In this document: positions 2,123 through 12,416 of the stretch, piece by piece
Layout: each line of letters starts with the position of its first letter
Position numbering within the stretch: the stretch's first letter is position 1
DNA from: a virus
DNA length: 12,591 bases
Direction: 5' to 3' (one strand)
UHGV virus genome: UHGV-1346634
Notes under the pieces: generated by a model
What the model saw: the letters and a program-made list of their open reading frames with translations, nothing else
What the model was told of the DNA's origin: nothing
The model's database searches: none
Made by a program: the position numbers and the translations under genes

Positions 2123-4102
2123 ATGACATTTAAACACTACGATGTGGTCAGGGCGGCGTCGCCGTCAGACCTTGCGGAGCGACTGACTCAAAAACTGAAG
2201 GAGGGGTGGCAGCCATTTGGCAGTCCTGTCGCCATCACGCCTTATACCCTGATGCAGGCCATTGCGGCGGAAGGTGATGTCACCACACCTGTGGTGGTGA
2301 AGCCGTCGGATGGAGAAGGCACAGTTATCAGCACCACCAGCGAACCGGAGTATTACTTTGTTGTTGTTCTGGCGGGGCAGTCAAACTCAATGTCTTTTGG
2401 TGAAGGGCTGCCGCTGCCGGAGACATATGACCGTCCGGACCCGCGTATTAAACAGCTGGCGCGTCGCAGTACGGTGACGCCGGGTGGTGCCGCCTGTAAA
2501 TATAACGACATCATTCCGGCAGACCACTGTCTGCATGATGTGCAGGATATGAGTAACCTGAATCATCCTCATGCAGACCTGAGTAAGGGACAGTACGGTT
2601 GTGTGGGGCATGCTCTGCATGTTGCCAAAAAGCTGCTGCCGTTTATGCCTGCGAATGCGGGTATCCTTCTTGTTCCATGTGGCCGTGGCGATTCGGGATT
2701 TACTGCGGGGGCCGAGGGGGCGTTTAACGAAGCGTCGGGAGCGACCGCAGGCTCGTCCCTGTGGGGGGCGGATAAACCGCTGTATCATGACCTGGTCAGC
2801 AGAACCCGTGCGGCCCTGAAGAAAAATCCGAAGAACGTGCTGTTATCAGTGATCTGGATGCAGGGAGAAAAAGATGTCAGTTCGGGGAGACATGCAGAAC
2901 ACAATGCGCTTTTCCTTGCCATGGTAAATCAGTTCCGTACGGAACTGGCAGATGTGGCAGAGCAGTGTACTGGCGGGACAACGGCCAGCGTCCCGTGGAT
3001 TTGCGGTGATACCACGTACTACTGGAAGGAAAGGTATGCAGCGCCGTATGAGGCGGTTTACGGTGGGTATAAAGGAAAAGCTGCGCAGAATATTCACTTT
3101 GTGCCGTTGATGACGGATGAGCATGGTGTGAATGTGCCGACAAACGAGCCGTCAGAAGATCCGGACATTATCCCGGCGGGATACTATGGCGCTGCGTCAC
3201 GCACTGCCAGTAACTGGACGGCAGCCGATCGTAAAACGCACTTCAGTTCATGGGCGCGAAGAGGCCTTGTTTCAGACCGCCTGGCAGGTGCCATTTTGCA
3301 GTACGCCGGGCGGACATTATCGTTCCTTACCGGGCAGAGCGCACCGCAGTCGGGTGGTACAACGCCTGTCAGTCCGGGGACACCGGATGTTGAGAAACCG
3401 CAGGATGGCGGTGTTGCTGGTACTGGTCATGATGAGGCCGTGAGCAGTACCAGGACGGTGGCTGAATATGATGCGAACAGTGGAAATGGTGCATTGACAG
3501 AGCAGCAGTGGGGCGCTTCCGGCGGCAAAGGCACTGTGACTGATGACGGTGGACGGAAAGCGCTGCGACTGGAAAAACAGCCCGGTAAACTGACGTCCTG
3601 GAAAATGTTCCGTACTATTGCAGTGGAGGAGGCAAAAAATCTTCTCAGCAAGGGGGGGGAAATTGCCGTACGGTTCAAAATTCCGGATGGAAGCGAGCTG
3701 GTGAACGGACAGTTTGTCTTTGGTATCTACTGGCCGGTGTCGCAGTGGGCGTCAGGCGCGACAGCAAACAGTATGCTGGCATCATTCTTCCTTCAGACGG
3801 ATACATCAAATCTTAATCTGATGCACCAGAAGGGCTCCTCGAATGCACAACTGGGTACATTTGGTACGTTTGACCATAACTGGCATACGGTTGTTTTCCG
3901 CTTTGCGGGAAATAACAGCGAAAGAGTTGTTCCGGTGATTGATGGTGCAGAGCAGACGGCATTTGACCTTGTGATGTGGACAAATGATGGCTTTACAGCA
4001 GATACGCTGACGCTGACAGATATCACGGGGGCAAAAGCGACGTATCCGGTACTGCTTGATACGGTCACAGTCAAAGTTAACGAAAGCCGGGCATCATCAT
4101 AA
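2123..4102 (+). CDS. nanS-p: Prophage sialate 9-O-acetylesterase (NanS-p type)
   Basis: 659-aa ORF with RBS GGGAGG 4 nt before the ATG. SGNH-esterase motif LAGQSN (in VVVLAGQSNSM) and a DUF1737-like N-terminus. Size and position match the large esterase ORF downstream of stx in 933W-type phages (from memory). Confidence 0.8.
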   Translation: MTFKHYDVVRAASPSDLAERLTQKLKEGWQPFGSPVAITPYTLMQAIAAEGDVTTPVVVKPSDGEGTVISTTSEPEYYFVVVLAGQSNSMSFGEGLPLPETYDRPDPRIKQLARRSTVTPGGAACKYNDIIPADHCLHDVQDMSNLNHPHADLSKGQYGCVGHALHVAKKLLPFMPANAGILLVPCGRGDSGFTAGAEGAFNEASGATAGSSLWGADKPLYHDLVSRTRAALKKNPKNVLLSVIWMQGEKDVSSGRHAEHNALFLAMVNQFRTELADVAEQCTGGTTASVPWICGDTTYYWKERYAAPYEAVYGGYKGKAAQNIHFVPLMTDEHGVNVPTNEPSEDPDIIPAGYYGAASRTASNWTAADRKTHFSSWARRGLVSDRLAGAILQYAGRTLSFLTGQSAPQSGGTTPVSPGTPDVEKPQDGGVAGTGHDEAVSSTRTVAEYDANSGNGALTEQQWGASGGKGTVTDDGGRKALRLEKQPGKLTSWKMFRTIAVEEAKNLLSKGGEIAVRFKIPDGSELVNGQFVFGIYWPVSQWASGATANSMLASFFLQTDTSNLNLMHQKGSSNAQLGTFGTFDHNWHTVVFRFAGNNSERVVPVIDGAEQTAFDLVMWTNDGFTADTLTLTDITGAKATYPVLLDTVTVKVNESRASS

Positions 4103-4806: not shown

Positions 4807-5022
4807 ATGTACCAGATGGAAAAAATCACAACAGGTGTGTCATACACCACGTCAGCGGTGGGAACGGGCTACTGGTTCCTGCAGTTGCTGGACAGGGTTT
4901 CCCCGTCTCAGTGGGCGGCAATAGGCGTGCTGGGGAGTCTGCTGTTTGGTCTGCTGACGTACCTGACGAACCTGTATTTCAAAATTAAAGAAGACCGGCG
5001 TAAGGCGGCCCGGGGAGAGTAA
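4807..5022 (+). CDS. S: Class II holin (pinholin, S21-like) with dual start
   Basis: 71 aa; near-identical in pattern to phage 21 S ([23 protein letters not shown]...[21 protein letters not shown], from memory). Two in-frame starts at M1 (4807) and M4 (4816), the usual antiholin/holin arrangement. A SAR endolysin follows. Confidence 0.9.
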
Positions 5023-5026
5023 AGCG

Positions 5027-6013
5027 ATGAATAAAAAATATGAACTGGTTGTAAAAGGGATAAATCATTACCCGGATAAGATAACTGTTACTGTGGCACT
5101 GGTAATTGCCGGGCAGCCGTCGTTGTTGTCGCCATATGTGGCGATTAGTCTTGACCGTACTGAAGGTGCCACGCTGGAGTTTTACGAAGCTGAGGCGAAA
5201 AAACAGGCGAAGCAGTTTTTCATGGATGCGGCTCTCGGATTACGCGAAGGGACTGCGCGATATGGCTTTCAGAATATTTCTTCATGGACAATGCCGGAAA
5301 AAATCGCCACTTACCCGGGGCGTGAAAAGGTCAACGAACCGGTAAAAAATGCGCCTGATGATGTGCAGAGCGCGATGGTTAATGTGGAGCTTCCGGCACG
5401 TGTGACACCAGGAGTGAAAGTCGGGGAAGATTCTCGTCTTGTGCTGACCAAAAGAATAGGCAGCGTGGTCAGTGTTCATATTGATCATGAGGAAGTTCTG
5501 TCGGTTATGTACAGGGAAGACTACGATCCGAAAACAACATTCAGCGACTATGAAGCGAGAGCAAAGGAGTATGCCTTGTCGGTATTTGCTGCGGTACGTG
5601 GCGAGGACTGTCGTAAAAACGGGCATGAAAGTGATTTTACTGTGCCTGTGTCGGACAAAAACCAGGAACGGGAGTGTAACCGGCCATCCTTTGTTGTATC
5701 CGGTGATGACGGGAAAATCACCATATCAGAAAATGGAAAAGTAACACCGCCATCGCACCAGCACTGTGAGATGCTCATTGAATTTGCCATTGATTACCTG
5801 AAGAACAATAAAAAACAGGGGCTGATGAAGCGTATTGGTCGTTGCATGGGATATCTGCAGGTAGCTGCTGAGATTGAAGCGCTGGCCAGTGGTGCTGAAA
5901 AGGATGCAGTTGTGCGGGAGACCGTTCTTCGTGATTTCAATACTCCACCCTTTAAGACTGAGCCTGATAACTGGATCCAGCCGGGGCTGACTTATCTTAA
6001 AGTGCGTATTTAG
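5027..6013 (+). CDS. Hypothetical 328-aa protein inserted between holin and endolysin; function unknown
   Basis: Long uninterrupted ORF. ATG is 4 nt after the holin stop, with GGGGAGAG 9 nt upstream, so it is translationally embedded in the late lysis operon. No signal peptide, transmembrane segment or motif that I recognise. P21 and 933W-type cassettes, as I recall them, have S followed directly by R. Confidence 0.6.
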   Translation: MNKKYELVVKGINHYPDKITVTVALVIAGQPSLLSPYVAISLDRTEGATLEFYEAEAKKQAKQFFMDAALGLREGTARYGFQNISSWTMPEKIATYPGREKVNEPVKNAPDDVQSAMVNVELPARVTPGVKVGEDSRLVLTKRIGSVVSVHIDHEEVLSVMYREDYDPKTTFSDYEARAKEYALSVFAAVRGEDCRKNGHESDFTVPVSDKNQERECNRPSFVVSGDDGKITISENGKVTPPSHQHCEMLIEFAIDYLKNNKKQGLMKRIGRCMGYLQVAAEIEALASGAEKDAVVRETVLRDFNTPPFKTEPDNWIQPGLTYLKVRI

Positions 6014-6049
6014 TGGGCCAGGGACAGCGGCTGAATATTTAATATATCC

Positions 6050-6583
6050 ATGAACGCAAAAATCAAATACGGCCTGTCAGCTGCTGTTCTGGCGCTGATT
6101 GCCGCAGGGGCTTCTGCGCCTGAAATCCTCGACCAGTTTCTGGATGAAAAAGAAGGTAACCACACCACGGCATACCGTGATGGTGCGGGTATCTGGACCA
6201 TCTGCCGTGGAGCCACCCGGGTGGATGGTAAGCCTGTGATTCCTGGCATGAAGCTGTCGAAGGAAAAATGCGACCGGGTTAACGCTATCGAACGGGATAA
6301 GGCGCTGGCATGGGTGGCGAAAAACATCAGAGTGCCACTGACCGAACCTCAGAAAGCGGGTATTGCGTCATTCTGCCCGTATAACATTGGCCCCGGTAAG
6401 TGTTTCCCGTCGACGTTTTATAAACGAATTAATGCAGGCGATCGCAGAGGAGCGTGTGAAGCGATTCGCTGGTGGATTAAGGACGGTGGCAGAGACTGCC
6501 GTATCCGCTCAAATAATTGTTACGGTCAGGTATCCCGGCGTGATCAGGAGAGTGCGCTGGCATGCTGGGGTATCGACAGGTAG
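6050..6583 (+). CDS. R: SAR endolysin (phage lysozyme, P21 R-type)
   Basis: 177 aa. N-terminal Gly/Ala-rich weakly hydrophobic signal-anchor-release segment GLSAAVLALIAAGASA. Catalytic E-x8-D-x5-T triad within EGNHTTAYRDGAGIWT. Matches the P21 R lysozyme pattern. Confidence 0.85.
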   Translation: MNAKIKYGLSAAVLALIAAGASAPEILDQFLDEKEGNHTTAYRDGAGIWTICRGATRVDGKPVIPGMKLSKEKCDRVNAIERDKALAWVAKNIRVPLTEPQKAGIASFCPYNIGPGKCFPSTFYKRINAGDRRGACEAIRWWIKDGGRDCRIRSNNCYGQVSRRDQESALACWGIDR

Positions 6584-6855: not shown

Positions 6856-7551
6856 ATGAAAGAGATGATTTCTGTCGATCATGAAATATCCATGAGTAGT
6901 CTGGATTTTCTGAATAACATTATTAACCCCATCCGGGTTGAGGCAGGGAAACCACCTCATGAACCGCGTAAGTTCCTTGCAAAAATTGAGGACGAACTTG
7001 AGCTTGAGGTAACCTGGAAAAAATTCCGGTTAAACAATAACCAGACAAGAACGGCATACTATGATCTGGATTTTGACCAGATGATGCTCGTTGGCATGAG
7101 AGAGTCAAAGGCCGTTCGTCGTTCTGTGCTGGCAAGGCTCAAAGCGATGCATGGTATTCAGATCCCCCAGACTTTACCTGAGGCGTTGCGATTTGCGGCA
7201 AAACTGGCAGAACAGAAAGCAGTGCTGGAAAATCAACTGGCAATAGCAGCGCCGAAGGCTGAATTTGTTGATAACTATGTTGAAGCATCTGGTCTGATGG
7301 GATTCCGGGAAGTTGCTAAGTTACTCGGTATCAAAGAAACCGATTTCCGGCTGTTTTTGTTGGAGAACGGAATAATGTATCGCCTCGCTGGAAAAATGAC
7401 GCCTTACTCGCATCACCTGGATGTGGGGCGGTTTAGCGTGAAAACGGGCGAGGCGGGCAATGGTCATGCTTTTACGCAGGTTAAATTCACCCCAAAAGGT
7501 GTTCAGTGGATTGCTGGTCTGCTTGCTGCATGGAGAGCTACCGCAGCATGA
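6856..7551 (+). CDS. ant: Phage antirepressor (KilAC-domain, Ant-like)
   Basis: 231 aa with RBS AAGGAA 6 nt before the ATG. C-terminal half has the KilAC/ANT-type pattern. An ant-like gene between R and Rz is a feature of 933W-type phages (from memory). Confidence 0.7.
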   Translation: MKEMISVDHEISMSSLDFLNNIINPIRVEAGKPPHEPRKFLAKIEDELELEVTWKKFRLNNNQTRTAYYDLDFDQMMLVGMRESKAVRRSVLARLKAMHGIQIPQTLPEALRFAAKLAEQKAVLENQLAIAAPKAEFVDNYVEASGLMGFREVAKLLGIKETDFRLFLLENGIMYRLAGKMTPYSHHLDVGRFSVKTGEAGNGHAFTQVKFTPKGVQWIAGLLAAWRATAA

Positions 7552-7645: not shown

Positions 7646-7777
7646 ATGTCAGACAAACTCATAATGCTGGCGAAGGGCCTTTGTGTAATCGTCGGTATTT
7701 CATTTTCACTAATGCTGGTTGTTCTTTTTCTTTCCATAACCTGGATGGCGTTGACTTCGGCAGGGGTGGTGGGGTGA
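7646..7777 (+). CDS. Possible 43-aa hydrophobic peptide ([43 protein letters not shown])
   Basis: Starts 2 nt after the previous small ORF; its stop TGA (7775-7777) overlaps the likely GTG start of Rz at 7774 (GTGA). Confidence 0.25.
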
Positions 7778-8247
7778 GTATAAACCGAATGCTTTCCGCG
7801 TTTACCGTTATTCTGCTGGTGGTCTGTGGTGCGCTTAGTCTGGGGCTGAATCATTACCGCGATAACGCCATCACCTACAAAGCGCAGCGAGATAAAAAAG
7901 CCAGAGAGCTGGAGCTGGCAAACGCAACCATTACTGATATGCAGGTGCGCCAGCGCGATGTTGCTGCGCTCGATGCAAAATACTCGAGGGAATTAGCCGA
8001 TGCGAGAGCTGAAAATGAAACTCTTCGCGCTGACGTTGCCGCTGGTCGTAAGCGCCTGCGGCTCAACGCCACCTGCCCCGGTACCGTGCGTGAAGCCACC
8101 GGCACCTCCGGCGTGGATAATGCAACCGGCCCCCGACTGGCAGACACCGCTGAACGGGATTATTTCATCCTCAGAGAACGGTTGATGACAATGCAGAAGC
8201 AGCTGGAAGGGGCGCAGGAATATATCCGCACTCAGTGTATTAACTAG
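7774..8247 (+). CDS. Rz: Rz i-spanin
   Basis: Strong match to lambda Rz from memory ([62 protein letters not shown]). The track ORF from 7681 begins with TTG and over-extends; the likely start is GTG 7774 ([10 protein letters not shown]...) or ATG 7789. Confidence 0.85.
8000..8185 (+). CDS. Rz1: Rz1 o-spanin lipoprotein, embedded in the +1 frame of Rz
   Basis: 61 aa. Lipobox LVVSAC and the proline-rich motif [27 protein letters not shown], matching lambda Rz1 from memory. Fully nested inside Rz. Confidence 0.85.
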
Positions 8248-8819: not shown

Positions 8820-8833
8820 TATCTGTGCCGGGA

Positions 8834-9166
8834 ATGAAAATGAAAAGAAATCTTCCGTTAATTATTTTGTTGTCTTCTCTGGTTATGGGCTGTACGCAAC
8901 ATAAAACAGATATGCCCCGACAGTTGGTTAAGGCATTACCACAATATCCGGCCTATGCAGTGGCAAATTATATAAAGGGACGGGTTGATGTGAAGTTTGA
9001 TATTGGTGCTGATGGTACTGTCACCCGAATTGAGTTTATCCGTTCAGAGCCGCACCATCTGTTTGATGAGCAGGTTGTAAAGGCGATGGCAAAATGGCGA
9101 TTTGAGAAGGACAGGCCGCGTAAAGGCGTGAAGAAAACGTTTATCTTTAGTCCTTCTGCACCCTGA
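8834..9166 (+). CDS. Lipoprotein consisting of a TonB C-terminal-like domain
   Basis: Signal peptide with lipobox (MKMKRNLPLIILLSSLVMGC). The mature part aligns by eye to the E. coli TonB C-terminal domain: PQYPAYAVANYIKGRVDVKFDIGADGTVTRIEFIRSEP..FDEQVVKAMAKWRFE against TonB [53 protein letters not shown]. Alternative starts at 8825 (GTG) and 8840 (ATG). Confidence 0.7.
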   Translation: MKMKRNLPLIILLSSLVMGCTQHKTDMPRQLVKALPQYPAYAVANYIKGRVDVKFDIGADGTVTRIEFIRSEPHHLFDEQVVKAMAKWRFEKDRPRKGVKKTFIFSPSAP

Positions 9167-9297: not shown

Positions 9298-9498
9298 TCA
9301 TTTCTCGTTATTTGTCATGCTGGCCGGACGCAGATGCGTTGCATCTGTTGCCAGCCTTCTCCTGCAGGCTTCAATAACCCACGCTGAAAAGTTACCGGAC
9401 CCTTTATGCTCAAGGGCTATGTTGATTTGTTCAATTATGTGATTGGGGAAACGGATATTGCGGGTTGTGGTTCTGCGGGTCCGGTTTTTCGATGACAT
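9298..9498 (-). CDS. Small DNA-binding protein, ribbon-helix-helix (Arc-like); possibly YlcI/YnfO family
   Basis: 66 aa on the minus strand with RBS AAGGA about 8 nt before the ATG. The segment NIRFPNHIIEQINIALEHKGSGNFSAWVIEACRRRL resembles the Arc beta-strand plus helices pattern. Position upstream of the terminase genes matches where ylcI/ynfO sit in K-12 cryptic prophages (from memory). Confidence 0.5.
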   Translation of the reverse strand: MSSKNRTRRTTTRNIRFPNHIIEQINIALEHKGSGNFSAWVIEACRRRLATDATHLRPASMTNNEK

Positions 9499-9539: not shown

Positions 9540-9905
9540 ATGGCTGAGCTTCGTACACTCCAGAGCAGAATCAAAACACTGAATACCCGACGGGTGAATA
9601 TTCTGAAGGGCGAACAGCGTCGTGTCAGTGGCAGTGCACGTGTTTCCCTCAAGCGTCATATCTGGCTCAGGGACGCCGGGCAGTGCTGTCTCTGTGGTCG
9701 TGTGGTTGACCTCTGTGACAGTGAACTTGATCACCGAATTGCACTTCAGTTCGGTGGTGGTAATGAGGAGACGAATCTCTGGACGCTCTGTACCGAATGC
9801 CATCGACAAAAGTCTGCTCGTGAAGCGGCGGGTGGTATGCCGGACCCGACGCTGCCGGAGGTGTCCGGAGGTAGTGGCAGAGCGGACGACATCATCGGAC
9901 TGTAA
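9540..9905 (+). CDS. HNH homing-type endonuclease associated with the terminase
   Basis: 121 aa with Cys-x2-Cys ... H-x ... Cys-x2-C-H arrangement (CCLCGR ... DHRIALQFGG ... NLWTLCTECHRQK), located immediately upstream of cos/TerS as in HK97-like packaging modules. Confidence 0.8.
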   Translation: MAELRTLQSRIKTLNTRRVNILKGEQRRVSGSARVSLKRHIWLRDAGQCCLCGRVVDLCDSELDHRIALQFGGGNEETNLWTLCTECHRQKSAREAAGGMPDPTLPEVSGGSGRADDIIGL

Positions 9906-10194: not shown

Positions 10195-10758
10195 GTGCTG
10201 ACAACGCAAAAACGAAAATTTGCGCTGGCGCTCATGTCCGGGAAAAACAAAACAGCGTCAGCCATTGCGGCAGGTTATTCGGCGAAGACGGCCAGAGTTA
10301 AAGGCTCGCAACTGGCAAAAGATCCGGAAGTGCTCGCGTTTATAGCCCGTAAGCAGTGCGAGACGGTAGAGGTGGATGAGGTTCCTGTTTACCGGCAGAA
10401 AAAATCAGAGCAGGAGGATAAACCCCGTCGCCGTGAGGCGGCTGCAATACCACAGCCGGACGAAACAAATCCGGAGATGCCACCGCCCGTGGTGATATCT
10501 CCTGGTATTGAGTATATGGAGGACGGTCTTCCCGATCCTGTGAAAGCGATGGGGCGTCTTCTGGTGGAGAACATTAATACCGACCCCAGGCTGGCGCTGG
10601 ATGCGGCTTATAAGCTGGCGCAGTTCACGCACCACAAAAAAGGGGATGCCGGTAAAAAATCGGCAAAAGGTGACGCGGCGAAAAAAGCGGCTAACCGTTT
10701 TGCGGTGCCACCACCACCCCGCCTGGTGGTGAATAATGATAATGAGGGCAACGGATGA
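10195..10758 (+). CDS. Terminase small subunit (P27-family type)
   Basis: 187 aa, GTG start after GGGAGGAGG. N-terminal pattern KRKFALALMSGKNKTASAIAAGYSAKTARVKGSQL is typical of this TerS family. Stop overlaps the TerL start (ATGA). Confidence 0.75.
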   Translation: MLTTQKRKFALALMSGKNKTASAIAAGYSAKTARVKGSQLAKDPEVLAFIARKQCETVEVDEVPVYRQKKSEQEDKPRRREAAAIPQPDETNPEMPPPVVISPGIEYMEDGLPDPVKAMGRLLVENINTDPRLALDAAYKLAQFTHHKKGDAGKKSAKGDAAKKAANRFAVPPPPRLVVNNDNEGNG

Positions 10759-12416
10759 TACCAGTGTGGAGCACGGCCTGCCCGGACTGGGCAGAGCGTC
10801 TGAAAAAGGGGCTGTCGATTATTCCGTCTCCGATTTACCCGGAGCAGGCCGCACATGCCCTGGCGATTTTTAAACAACTGCGGATTGTGGATGCACCGGG
10901 CAGCCCGACGTTCGGGGAGTCCTGTGCACCGTGGGTGTTTGACCTGGTGGCGGCCCTGTTTGGCTCCTACGATGCGCAGACCGGTGTACGCCATATCAAG
11001 GAAGTTTTTATCCTTATCCCCAAGAAAAACTCGAAGTCCACGCTGGCCGCGGGGATCATGATGACGGCGCTGTTACTGAACTGGCGGCAGGCGGCGGGCT
11101 ACACCATTCTGGCCCCGACCGTGGAGGTGGCGGCTAACGCCTTCAACCCTGCCAGGGATATGGTACGACGGGACGATGATCTGGATGACCTCTGTCAGGT
11201 GCAGACACATATCCGGACCATCACCCATCGGGTGACGGACACCACCCTTAAGGTGGTGGCTGCCGATCCGAATACGGTGTCCGGTATCAAGTCCGTGGGG
11301 ACGCTGATTGATGAACTGTGGTTATTTGGCAAGCAGTACAAAGCGGAGGACATGTTACGTGAAGCCATAGGCGGCCTTGCCTCCCGCCCGGAAGGGTTTG
11401 TGGTGTATACGACCACCCAGTCGAATGAACCGCCCGCCGGGGTGTTCAGACAGAAACTGCAGTACGCCCGGGATGTGCGCGACGGCAAAATTCATGATCC
11501 GCACTTTCTGCCGGTGATATTTGAACACCCTCCTGAAATGGTGGAAAGCGGGGCTCACCTGCTGATGGAAAACCTCGCCATGGTCAATCCGAATCTCGGT
11601 TATTCGGTGGATGAGGCTTTTCTGTACCGGGAGTACCGTAAAGCCCGGGAGGCTGGTGAGGAAGCATTTCGTGGCTTCATGTCAAAACACGCCAATGTGG
11701 AAATCGGTCTTGCCCTGCGTTCTGACCGCTGGGCGGGCGCGGATTTCTGGGAGCAGCAGGGCAGGCGCGTCAGCCTGGACGATATCCTGCAGCGCGCTGA
11801 TGTGGTGACGGTGGGGATTGACGGCGGGGGCCTGGATGATCTGCTGGGAATGTACGTGATTGGCCGTGACAGGGAAACCCGCGAATGGCTGGGCTGGGGC
11901 CATGCCTGGGCGCATGAAACCGCGGTGGTCAGACGGAAGAGTGAGGCATCCCGGTTTCAGGATTTTGTGGCCTGTGGAGACATGACGATTGTCCGTCGGG
12001 TCGGGGATGACACGGCGGAAGTGGCGGAGTATGTGCGTCGTATCCATGAGGCTGAGTTACTGGATCATATCGGTATTGACCCGTCAGGTGTGGGGCAGAT
12101 TCTGGATTCACTGGCAGAAGCCGGGATCCCCGACGGAATTGTTGTGGGGATAAGCCAGGGCTGGAAGCTGGGCGGGGCCATCAAAACCACCGAGCGCAAA
12201 CTGGCTGAGGGAGTGCTGGTGCATGGTGGTCAGCCACTGATGGCCTGGTGCGTTGGCAATGCCCGGGTGGAGCCTAAAGGTAACGCCATCCTTATTACCA
12301 AACAGGCCAGCGGACGGGGGAAAATTGACCCGCTGATGGCGCTGTTCAATGCGGTATCCCTGATGTCCCTGAATCCGGAGCCCAAAAAGAAAGAATATGC
12401 GGTTTATTTCATATAA
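10755..12416 (+). CDS. Terminase large subunit
   Basis: 553 aa, translationally coupled to TerS. Walker A-like region ILIPKKNSKST and overall composition typical of HK97-type large terminases. Confidence 0.8.
   Translation: MIPVWSTACPDWAERLKKGLSIIPSPIYPEQAAHALAIFKQLRIVDAPGSPTFGESCAPWVFDLVAALFGSYDAQTGVRHIKEVFILIPKKNSKSTLAAGIMMTALLLNWRQAAGYTILAPTVEVAANAFNPARDMVRRDDDLDDLCQVQTHIRTITHRVTDTTLKVVAADPNTVSGIKSVGTLIDELWLFGKQYKAEDMLREAIGGLASRPEGFVVYTTTQSNEPPAGVFRQKLQYARDVRDGKIHDPHFLPVIFEHPPEMVESGAHLLMENLAMVNPNLGYSVDEAFLYREYRKAREAGEEAFRGFMSKHANVEIGLALRSDRWAGADFWEQQGRRVSLDDILQRADVVTVGIDGGGLDDLLGMYVIGRDRETREWLGWGHAWAHETAVVRRKSEASRFQDFVACGDMTIVRRVGDDTAEVAEYVRRIHEAELLDHIGIDPSGVGQILDSLAEAGIPDGIVVGISQGWKLGGAIKTTERKLAEGVLVHGGQPLMAWCVGNARVEPKGNAILITKQASGRGKIDPLMALFNAVSLMSLNPEPKKKEYAVYFI

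Follow-up and report, generated by a model that had tools for sequence, protein, structure and literature searches.

A 328-codon gene between the holin and lysozyme genes of virus genome UHGV-1346634 is a rare allele of the YdfR/DUF1327 family

The virus genome UHGV-1346634 was analysed as one stretch of 12,591 nucleotides (nt), referred to here as the window, in which an open reading frame (ORF) of 328 codons (5027-6013, plus strand, ATG start, TAG stop) lies between the genes for a class II holin and a phage lysozyme. This gene was found to be a rare new allele of YdfR/DUF1327, a family already known but not yet characterised, in its long three-domain form and at the family's normal position. 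It is not a novel insertion into a pinholin and signal-arrest-release (SAR) endolysin pair; the slot is the usual place of the family in Escherichia coli. An earlier note, made from the letters of the window, had presented the gene as unrecognised and wedged between two genes that are normally adjacent, and for annotation our finding mostly corrects that premise by putting a catalogued family in its normal slot. The family occurs in most E. coli genomes, with up to eight copies in O157:H7, and in the lysis cassette of most phages that convert their host to Shiga toxin (Stx) types Stx1a and Stx2c, and carries no assigned function. The outcomes of the analysis are a domain map with a conserved C-terminal domain that is missing from Pfam, an error located in RefSeq, and a testable lead towards RNase E and RNA.

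The 328-amino-acid (aa) product, with an expected mass of 36.7 kDa, almost certainly belongs to the YdfR/DUF1327 family. Pfam PF07041 (DUF1327) matched aa 1-75 with an E value of 9.9e-33 and 112.7 bits, against a gathering score of 25, and aligned them to positions 1-75 of the 93 in the model, so that the protein said to hold no placeable motif opens with a clear DUF1327 domain. PHROG 1085 (unknown function) matched end to end (E 8.4e-115, aa 1-328 against profile positions 1-296 of 296), and part-length matches were obtained with PHROGs 11851 (aa 119-188), 36381 (aa 212-265) and 26186 (aa 267-328). All eight PHROG matches were classed as "unknown function" and none fell in the "lysis" category. 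The nr database already holds a 328-aa protein, P0001, that is 99% identical and named "DUF1327 domain-containing protein [Escherichia coli]", together with numerous entries of 268-333 aa called "YdfR family proteins", which show 42-58% full-length identity. Pfam, PHROG and the nr names thus agree on the family. A search of NCBIfam with the 328-aa ORF gave no match. When 43 family members were scanned against Pfam at E <= 1, DUF1327 was the sole recurrent family, with no zinc-finger and no known defence domain. In the literature, "DUF1327" received a passing mention in a single paper, and "ydfR", apart from the RNase E paper discussed below, occurred only incidentally (gene lists, a name mix-up and melanoma cell-line names); a survey of Stx-phage lysis cassettes leaves the gene between S and R unmentioned.

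Directly upstream of the ORF lies the gene of an S21-type class II holin of the pinholin family (S; 4807-5022, plus strand; PF04971, P21 holin S, E 7e-33), whose product starts with MYQMEK and so has the dual-start look of S21. The holin stop codon TAA (5020-5022) is separated from the ORF ATG at 5027 by 4 nt, and a Shine-Dalgarno-like sequence, GGGGAGAG (5012-5019, plus strand), is contained within the final holin codons, with its GGAG about 9 nt 5' of the ATG. These features were read directly from the sequence and bear out the earlier description of a real 328-aa gene with a 4-nt start gap and a good ribosome-binding site between holin and endolysin. The phage lysozyme gene R (6050-6583, plus strand; PF00959, E 3e-24; PHROG 7, endolysin), whose product has a hydrophobic N-terminus, begins 36 nt downstream of the ORF, and no obvious Shine-Dalgarno sequence was seen in the spacer (6014-6049). 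A scan of the ORF and its borders (5000-6050, plus strand) revealed no sigma-70-like promoter and no terminator, which supports the placement in the lysis operon that the earlier note had proposed; the flanking promoter and terminator of its own that characterise a moron are absent from this gene. The GC content was 46-52% along the ORF and 47-55% in the flanks, in agreement with the similar composition noted before.

The same arrangement is found in the cryptic prophage Qin of E. coli K-12, where the order is essQ (holin), ydfR, rrrQ (lysozyme) and rzpQ/rzoQ, and ydfR (b1555, P76160, PF07041) occupies the identical slot with the identical 4-nt gap after the holin stop. The K-12 ydfR gene overlaps the start of rrrQ, whereas the ORF of the window is followed by its 36-nt spacer; as S and R abut in 933W-like phages, the translation start of R may differ among cassette types. 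In phage H-19B an unannotated 400-nt gap between S and R contains a DUF1327 ORF, and annotations of E. coli genomes show the order lysozyme, YdfR family protein, class II holin in thousands of cases. In the collection of sequenced phages, an S21-type holin is encoded in 434 records and a DUF1327 domain in 100, and wherever a record lists both coordinates the DUF1327 domain begins directly after the holin. To survey inserts between S and R, a query in which S was fused directly to R was run on an even sample of 60 phage records, of which 53 were informative and seven were not. S and R were adjacent (span 750-754 nt) in 37 of the 53, all of them 933W-like and Sakai-like Stx2a phages, while 13 records had an insert of 390-830 nt and three were split by a larger one, so that about 30% of the informative records carry an insert. 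The view that S and R are normally adjacent therefore holds for 933W-like Stx2a phages but not as a general rule, and an insert shared by K-12 Qin, H-19B, thousands of E. coli genomes and the majority of Stx1a and Stx2c phages is not unusual. The earlier note had named, as evidence that would count against its reading, a gene common at this position with an already-described function; the gene proved common there, whereas its function is not described.

The presence of the gene differed strongly between Stx phage types. The phage records with an S21-type holin included 124 Stx2a-, 47 Stx1a- and 17 Stx2c-converting phages, but those with a DUF1327 domain included only two Stx2a phages against 41 Stx1a and 15 Stx2c phages. 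Almost all Stx1a and Stx2c phages thus have the DUF1327 gene, and almost all Stx2a phages lack it. This distribution probably reflects phage lineage, and it could bear on toxin release.

The 328-codon ORF is real and under purifying selection. The chance of an open frame of this length, (61/64)^328, is about 1e-7, and the frame was intact at exactly 328 codons in four further E. coli genomes (L001, 9221-10207; L016, 6221-7207; L017, 6221-7207; L018, 8221-9207), that is, in five of five alleles, although these copies differ from the window by up to 62 substitutions, or as much as about 8% of the DNA. The ratio of nonsynonymous to synonymous substitution rates (dN/dS) among the close E. coli alleles was 0.3-0.4, both overall and in each third of the ORF. 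In every complete genome checked, however, the RefSeq pipeline PGAP calls only the first 225 nt of the allele, as a DUF1327 pseudogene that is "incomplete, missing C-terminus", and about 760 nt of intact, conserved ORF is thus left unannotated in genomes with this allele. This pseudogene call is an annotation error. Of the 768 genomes that have the DNA of the C-terminal domain, many likewise leave it unannotated or label it a hypothetical protein.

The pseudogene call is one of the points that would favour regarding the gene as mostly filler, neutral or in decay, for which no function is selected and which would be a linker region between S and R or the scar of a recombination event; frameshifting of other copies into two ORFs (the CE10 copy is divided into ORFs of 162 and 161 aa) and the absence of the gene from most Stx2a phages could be read in the same way. 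Such a reading is highly improbable in view of the intact frame and the dN/dS values given above, the folding of three domains in the structure model (predicted local distance difference test (pLDDT) 75-97), and the conservation of the C-terminal domain down to 30-40% identity in Salmonella.

The structure model and the alignments showed a soluble, three-domain, beads-on-a-string protein whose domains recombine freely. AlphaFold performed poorly when given 25 E. coli sequences alone (pLDDT 48). Once distant relatives were included, for a total of 43 sequences, AlphaFold2 (AF2) gave a mean pLDDT of 75.9 and three folded domains joined by two disordered linkers. The N-terminal DUF1327 domain (aa 1-75; 5027-5251, plus strand, as are all segments of the ORF) was predicted as three beta strands followed by a long helix, with pLDDT 84-97 over aa 1-74, and corresponds to the PF07041 match. 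Linker 1 (aa 76-116; 5252-5374) was predicted to be disordered, with pLDDT below 50 at aa 76-112, and is very variable or replaced in homologues. The middle domain (aa 117-194; 5375-5608), which contains the PHROG 11851 match, was modelled as a beta meander and then a helix (pLDDT 75-84), and linker 2 (aa 195-220; 5609-5686) was again predicted as disordered (pLDDT below 50 at aa 195-213). The C-terminal domain (aa 221-328; 5687-6010; PHROGs 36381 and 26186) was predicted as three short strands followed by four helices, with pLDDT 86-97 over aa 222-328. The conserved features derived from alignment A3 are H246 and the motifs GR[CSA]MGxLQvAAEIE, PPFK and W..PG..YL, and no Pfam family matched this region in any of the 43 members.

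In the AF2 model each of the three domains opens with an antiparallel meander and continues into a long helix. BLASTP of the N domain against the remainder of the protein detected no internal repeat. Profile comparison with hhalign detected weak similarity of the N and middle modules where the strand passes into the helix (T-[LF]-x-x-Y-E-A-x-A-[KR]; 20 columns, E 1e-3) and gave nothing for the C domain. This profile match suggests that the N and middle modules may have arisen by internal duplication. Searches of solved structures by sequence, in which the full-length protein and its N and C domains served as phmmer and profile queries, returned as best hit a PhoU homologue at E 0.016, which is not meaningful. 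Structure prediction and search, proposed by the earlier note as a check, thus yielded three confident domains but no significant match of the model among solved or viral structures. Double-stranded-RNA-binding domain (dsRBD) proteins (ADAR2, Loquacious and TARBP2) appeared among the structure matches at E 0.1-0.4 and template-modelling (TM) scores of 0.10-0.22; these matches were not significant and were kept as a lead only. Tandem dsRBD proteins have an alpha-beta-beta-beta-alpha fold, whereas the modules of the window protein are without its N-terminal helix, and no sequence-profile match to the Protein Data Bank (PDB) was obtained for them.

The four Cys/His strings quoted in the earlier note (RGEDCRKNGH, ERECNRP, SHQHCEM and IGRCMGY) are all present, and the protein has four Cys and six His residues, some of them in short clusters. 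These residues are what would speak for a metal-binding protein. Column counts over the 43 homologues showed conservation only for H246 (36 of 38) and C273 (29 of 36), while C247 is replaced by R or S in 31 of 38, the usual residue at the position of C195 is A, and Cys is kept at C217 in 13 of 31. Even in close alleles SHQHC becomes SHKHS and EDCRK becomes EDRCK, and both C195 and C247 change there. As the required set of three or four Cys/His ligands is not conserved and no zinc-finger family was matched, the proposed metal site lacks support, and a metal-binding role is barely credible.

To determine how widely the family and its modules are distributed, DNA segments were used as queries on 5426 complete E. 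coli genomes. DUF1327 DNA of the window type was present in 1298 genomes, with up to eight copies in each, and that of the K-12 type in 3572, so that at least 3572 of the 5426 carry DUF1327 DNA. The C-domain DNA of the window (5681-6013) was found in 768 genomes, and the middle segment (5252-5680, aa 76-218) in only eight, at 97-100% identity. The same middle module is also present in P0091, P0100, P0127, P0129, P0131, P0134 and P0142. A HMMER scan with aa 80-328 against 1.84 billion cluster representatives recovered 25 clusters, one of which was a spurious eukaryotic repeat protein, and a C-domain profile recovered 72 clusters, those with a named source being from Escherichia, Shigella and Salmonella. 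A profile scan of contigs with the family alignment, which detects the N-domain pattern only and misses distant relatives, found eight Escherichia or Shigella loci, two labelled as other taxa in metagenome-assembled genomes.

The family is strongly mosaic: in alignments A1 and A2 the N and C domains are conserved and the region between them is variable. YdfR of K-12 is a protein of 103 aa that consists of DUF1327 and a short helical tail, whereas the 328-aa protein adds the rare middle module and the conserved C domain, both of them missing from K-12 YdfR and from Pfam. The long YdfR family proteins of PHROG 1085, such as the orf5 product of Stx2-converting phage 86, have the N and C domains and the slot in common with the window protein but a coiled-coil-like or other linker module at the centre, where the window allele has its beta-meander-plus-helix module, which it shares with P0091, P0100 and stand-alone ORFs. 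A two-gene form is common in E. coli (L023-L026, 2501-3397), in which the holin is followed by a 213-aa protein, a 75-aa DUF1327 protein and the lysozyme. The 213-aa protein consists of a coiled coil and the conserved C domain, so that the domains are separated by fission and the order of N and C domains is reversed relative to the fused gene. At these loci a 95-aa ORF is also called on the opposite strand just before the lysozyme gene. The N and C domains can thus be found fused, alone, or as separate adjoining genes in reverse order, and they behave as separable modules that tend to travel together.

Distant full-length relatives of 266-314 aa, with 21-31% identity, retain both the N-like and the C domains. 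In these Salmonella-type relatives the gene is found in the interval from the Q antiterminator gene to the holin gene, outside the slot that separates holin from lysozyme, and the neighbouring holin can belong to another class II family, PF16080. Since the position varies among relatives, the property that is kept is membership of the early part of the late operon beside the lysis genes, and not the exact slot between S and R. At three Salmonella-type loci (L014, 4639-5945; L010, 1089-2377; L027, 3689-4501) a DUF4406 (nucleoside 2-deoxyribosyltransferase-like) gene precedes the YdfR-like or C-domain gene, and in L010 and L014 these two genes share 4 nt, an overlap that points to translational coupling. 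Toxin-antitoxin modules (HicAB or ParE) occupy the interval between Q and the gene pair in Salmonella-type relatives.

Extreme modular mosaicism of this kind, with a rare middle module (8 of 5426 genomes) between common N and C modules, might be the mark of an arms race in which domains are swapped, and the gene could on that basis be an accessory for defence, superinfection exclusion or counter-defence. The narrow taxonomic range and the relatively relaxed dN/dS of 0.3-0.4 could be explained in the same manner. We nevertheless regard a role of this type as very unlikely: PADLOC, the collection of defence-system models, gave no family at E <= 1, no known defence domain was matched, the gene has no promoter of its own that would permit expression in the lysogen, and late expression is atypical of counter-defence genes.

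The constant association with lysis genes leads to the main rival explanation, a cytoplasmic regulator of lysis timing that would bind the cytoplasmic tail of the pinholin or would delay or license its triggering. Soluble or accessory lysis regulators are known, for example RIII of T4 and LydB of P1. The gene is always beside lysis genes; in E. coli it stands between S and R with tight spacing, and in Salmonella-type prophages just upstream of the holin, including the PF16080 holin. A genome-wide screen, as cited in PMC13232886, put ydfR among envelope-integrity genes, but a polar effect on rrrQ could account for what was seen in the K-12 ydfR mutant. Several observations make such a regulator unlikely. 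The peak of the 19-aa Kyte-Doolittle window was 1.46, below the usual threshold of 1.6, so that the protein has no predicted membrane segment, as previously noted, and no SAR segment either; no PHROG match lay in the lysis category; and about 70% of phages with near-identical holin and lysozyme are without the gene. Nor does the gene keep a constant position relative to the holin, and the stretch from Q to the holin serves generally as a cargo slot. A membrane-anchored antiholin or SAR-type regulator was considered as well and rejected on the same hydropathy peak and on the soluble nature of the AF2 domains.

A cargo or effector set free at lysis, to act on the animal host or on other bacteria in the manner of Stx and NanS-p, had also been suggested. 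The gene is indeed co-transcribed with nanS-p and the lysis genes in a late region like that of Stx phages, and long forms are common in pathogenic E. coli. The protein nevertheless has no signal peptide and no toxin or enzyme domain, its model had no structural match to effectors, short family members are fixed in the harmless strain K-12, and in K-12 YdfR the N domain has an intracellular binding partner of bacterial origin (PMC13232886); this reading is most improbable. For neither the effector nor the defence reading of the earlier note was positive evidence obtained, and the family data point instead to RNase E.

The only experimental information on the YdfR/DUF1327 family comes from a study of RNase E (PMC13232886, 2026). 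A bacterial two-hybrid screen yielded aa 1-72 of K-12 YdfR three times, full-length YdfR interacted with residues 1-597 of RNase E (Rne), FLAG-tagged Rne 1-598 co-eluted with Strep-YdfR, and the YdfR eluate contained an unusually large amount of DNase-resistant nucleic acid (PMC13232886). The N domain of the window protein aligned with aa 4-78 of K-12 YdfR without gaps over 75 aa, at 43% identity and 63% positives (E 6e-17), indicating that the two N domains are homologous. The best explanation for the 328-aa gene is therefore, tentatively, that of an accessory late protein, dispensable for lysis, that docks on RNase E and/or RNA. For the 328-aa protein itself, the RNase E/RNA mechanism is drawn by analogy with the K-12 protein and is possible but rather doubtful.

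The proposed mechanism would operate as follows. The gene would be an accessory of the pR'/Q-dependent late operon that is found in lambdoid prophages of E. coli and its near relatives. Because no promoter or terminator of its own was found and its start lies 4 nt after the holin stop, the protein would be made late, in the cytoplasm, alongside the lysis proteins, and would probably serve as an adaptor. Its N-terminal DUF1327 domain may attach to the catalytic half of the host enzyme RNase E, to RNA, or to both, and the exchangeable middle and C domains may recruit further partners. The likely outcome would be modulation of RNA turnover in the late phase and not disruption of membrane or wall. 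Should the long forms carried by phages share the RNase E link reported for K-12 YdfR, host RNA decay would be tied to the late phase of Stx phages, in which toxin is produced and cells are lysed.

Phage proteins that target RNase E include Srd of T4, Dip of phiKZ and gp0.7 of T7, and T4 Srd binds the catalytic N-terminal half of the enzyme. All three come from virulent phages, belong to the early or middle proteins, and have been shown to affect RNA decay. Should the K-12 result carry over, the 328-aa protein would be another phage protein that contacts host RNase E, like T4 Srd. General searches turned up no similarity to T4 Srd, phiKZ Dip or T7 gp0.7, a specific test for which was not made.

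Several points weigh against docking on RNase E or RNA. Unlike T4 Srd, phiKZ Dip and T7 gp0.7, YdfR had little effect on the transcriptome when overexpressed, with few transcripts changed and growth unaffected, and the authors could not exclude a contaminant as the carrier of RNA in the YdfR preparation (PMC13232886). The interaction is known for the short K-12 protein only, which is 43% identical to the window protein in the N domain, and nothing ties the conserved C domain to RNA. The strict lysis-gene neighbourhood fits a lysis-related role equally well. Frameshifted or split copies of the family are frequent, and the gene is missing from about 70% of phages that have the same holin and lysozyme, which together indicate that any function is dispensable.

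A broader proposal would extend RNase E docking to the family as a whole. The YdfR family would then be a widespread set of modular late proteins of lambdoid and Stx phages, in which a conserved N-terminal beta3-alpha domain docks on the catalytic core of RNase E or RNA and swappable domains retarget it, so that the stability of late transcripts (including stx and lysis mRNAs), and hence lysis timing, burst size or toxin yield, would be tuned. We consider this generalisation distinctly unlikely as it stands; if it were true, the near-universal presence of the gene in Stx1a and Stx2c phages and its near-absence from Stx2a phages would gain phenotypic meaning.

Further features of the window were also noted. 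An antirepressor-like gene (Pfam ANT / KilAC domain, E 1e-27; 6856-7551) lies between the lysozyme gene and Rz/Rz1 (7681-8247 and 8000-8185), so that the lysis cassette of the window is interrupted twice, in the order S-[YdfR-like]-R-[Ant]-Rz/Rz1. Upstream of the holin, a nanS-p-like esterase gene (DUF1737 + SASA + DUF6645) occupies 2123-4102, and no stx genes were found upstream of it in the window. In three of four relatives, tRNA-Ile, tRNA-Arg and tRNA-Arg genes lie between a DNA methyltransferase gene and the nanS-p-like esterase gene, while L018 lists none; in the window no tRNA gene was detected at any position, including 1077-2122. A short tandem direct repeat was seen at about 1100-1170, right after the methyltransferase gene; it reads GRWSLVAGRWSLVAG in the translation of the ORF at 988-1212 and PATSDQRPATSDQRPA on the other strand. 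Downstream of Rz/Rz1 are a TonB_C-domain lipoprotein-like gene (8825-9166), a DUF3950 (YlcI/YnfO-like) gene on the minus strand (9298-9498) and an HNH endonuclease gene (9540-9905). All three precede the genes for the terminase small subunit (10195-10758) and large subunit (10755-12416), in the usual HNH-terminase pairing.

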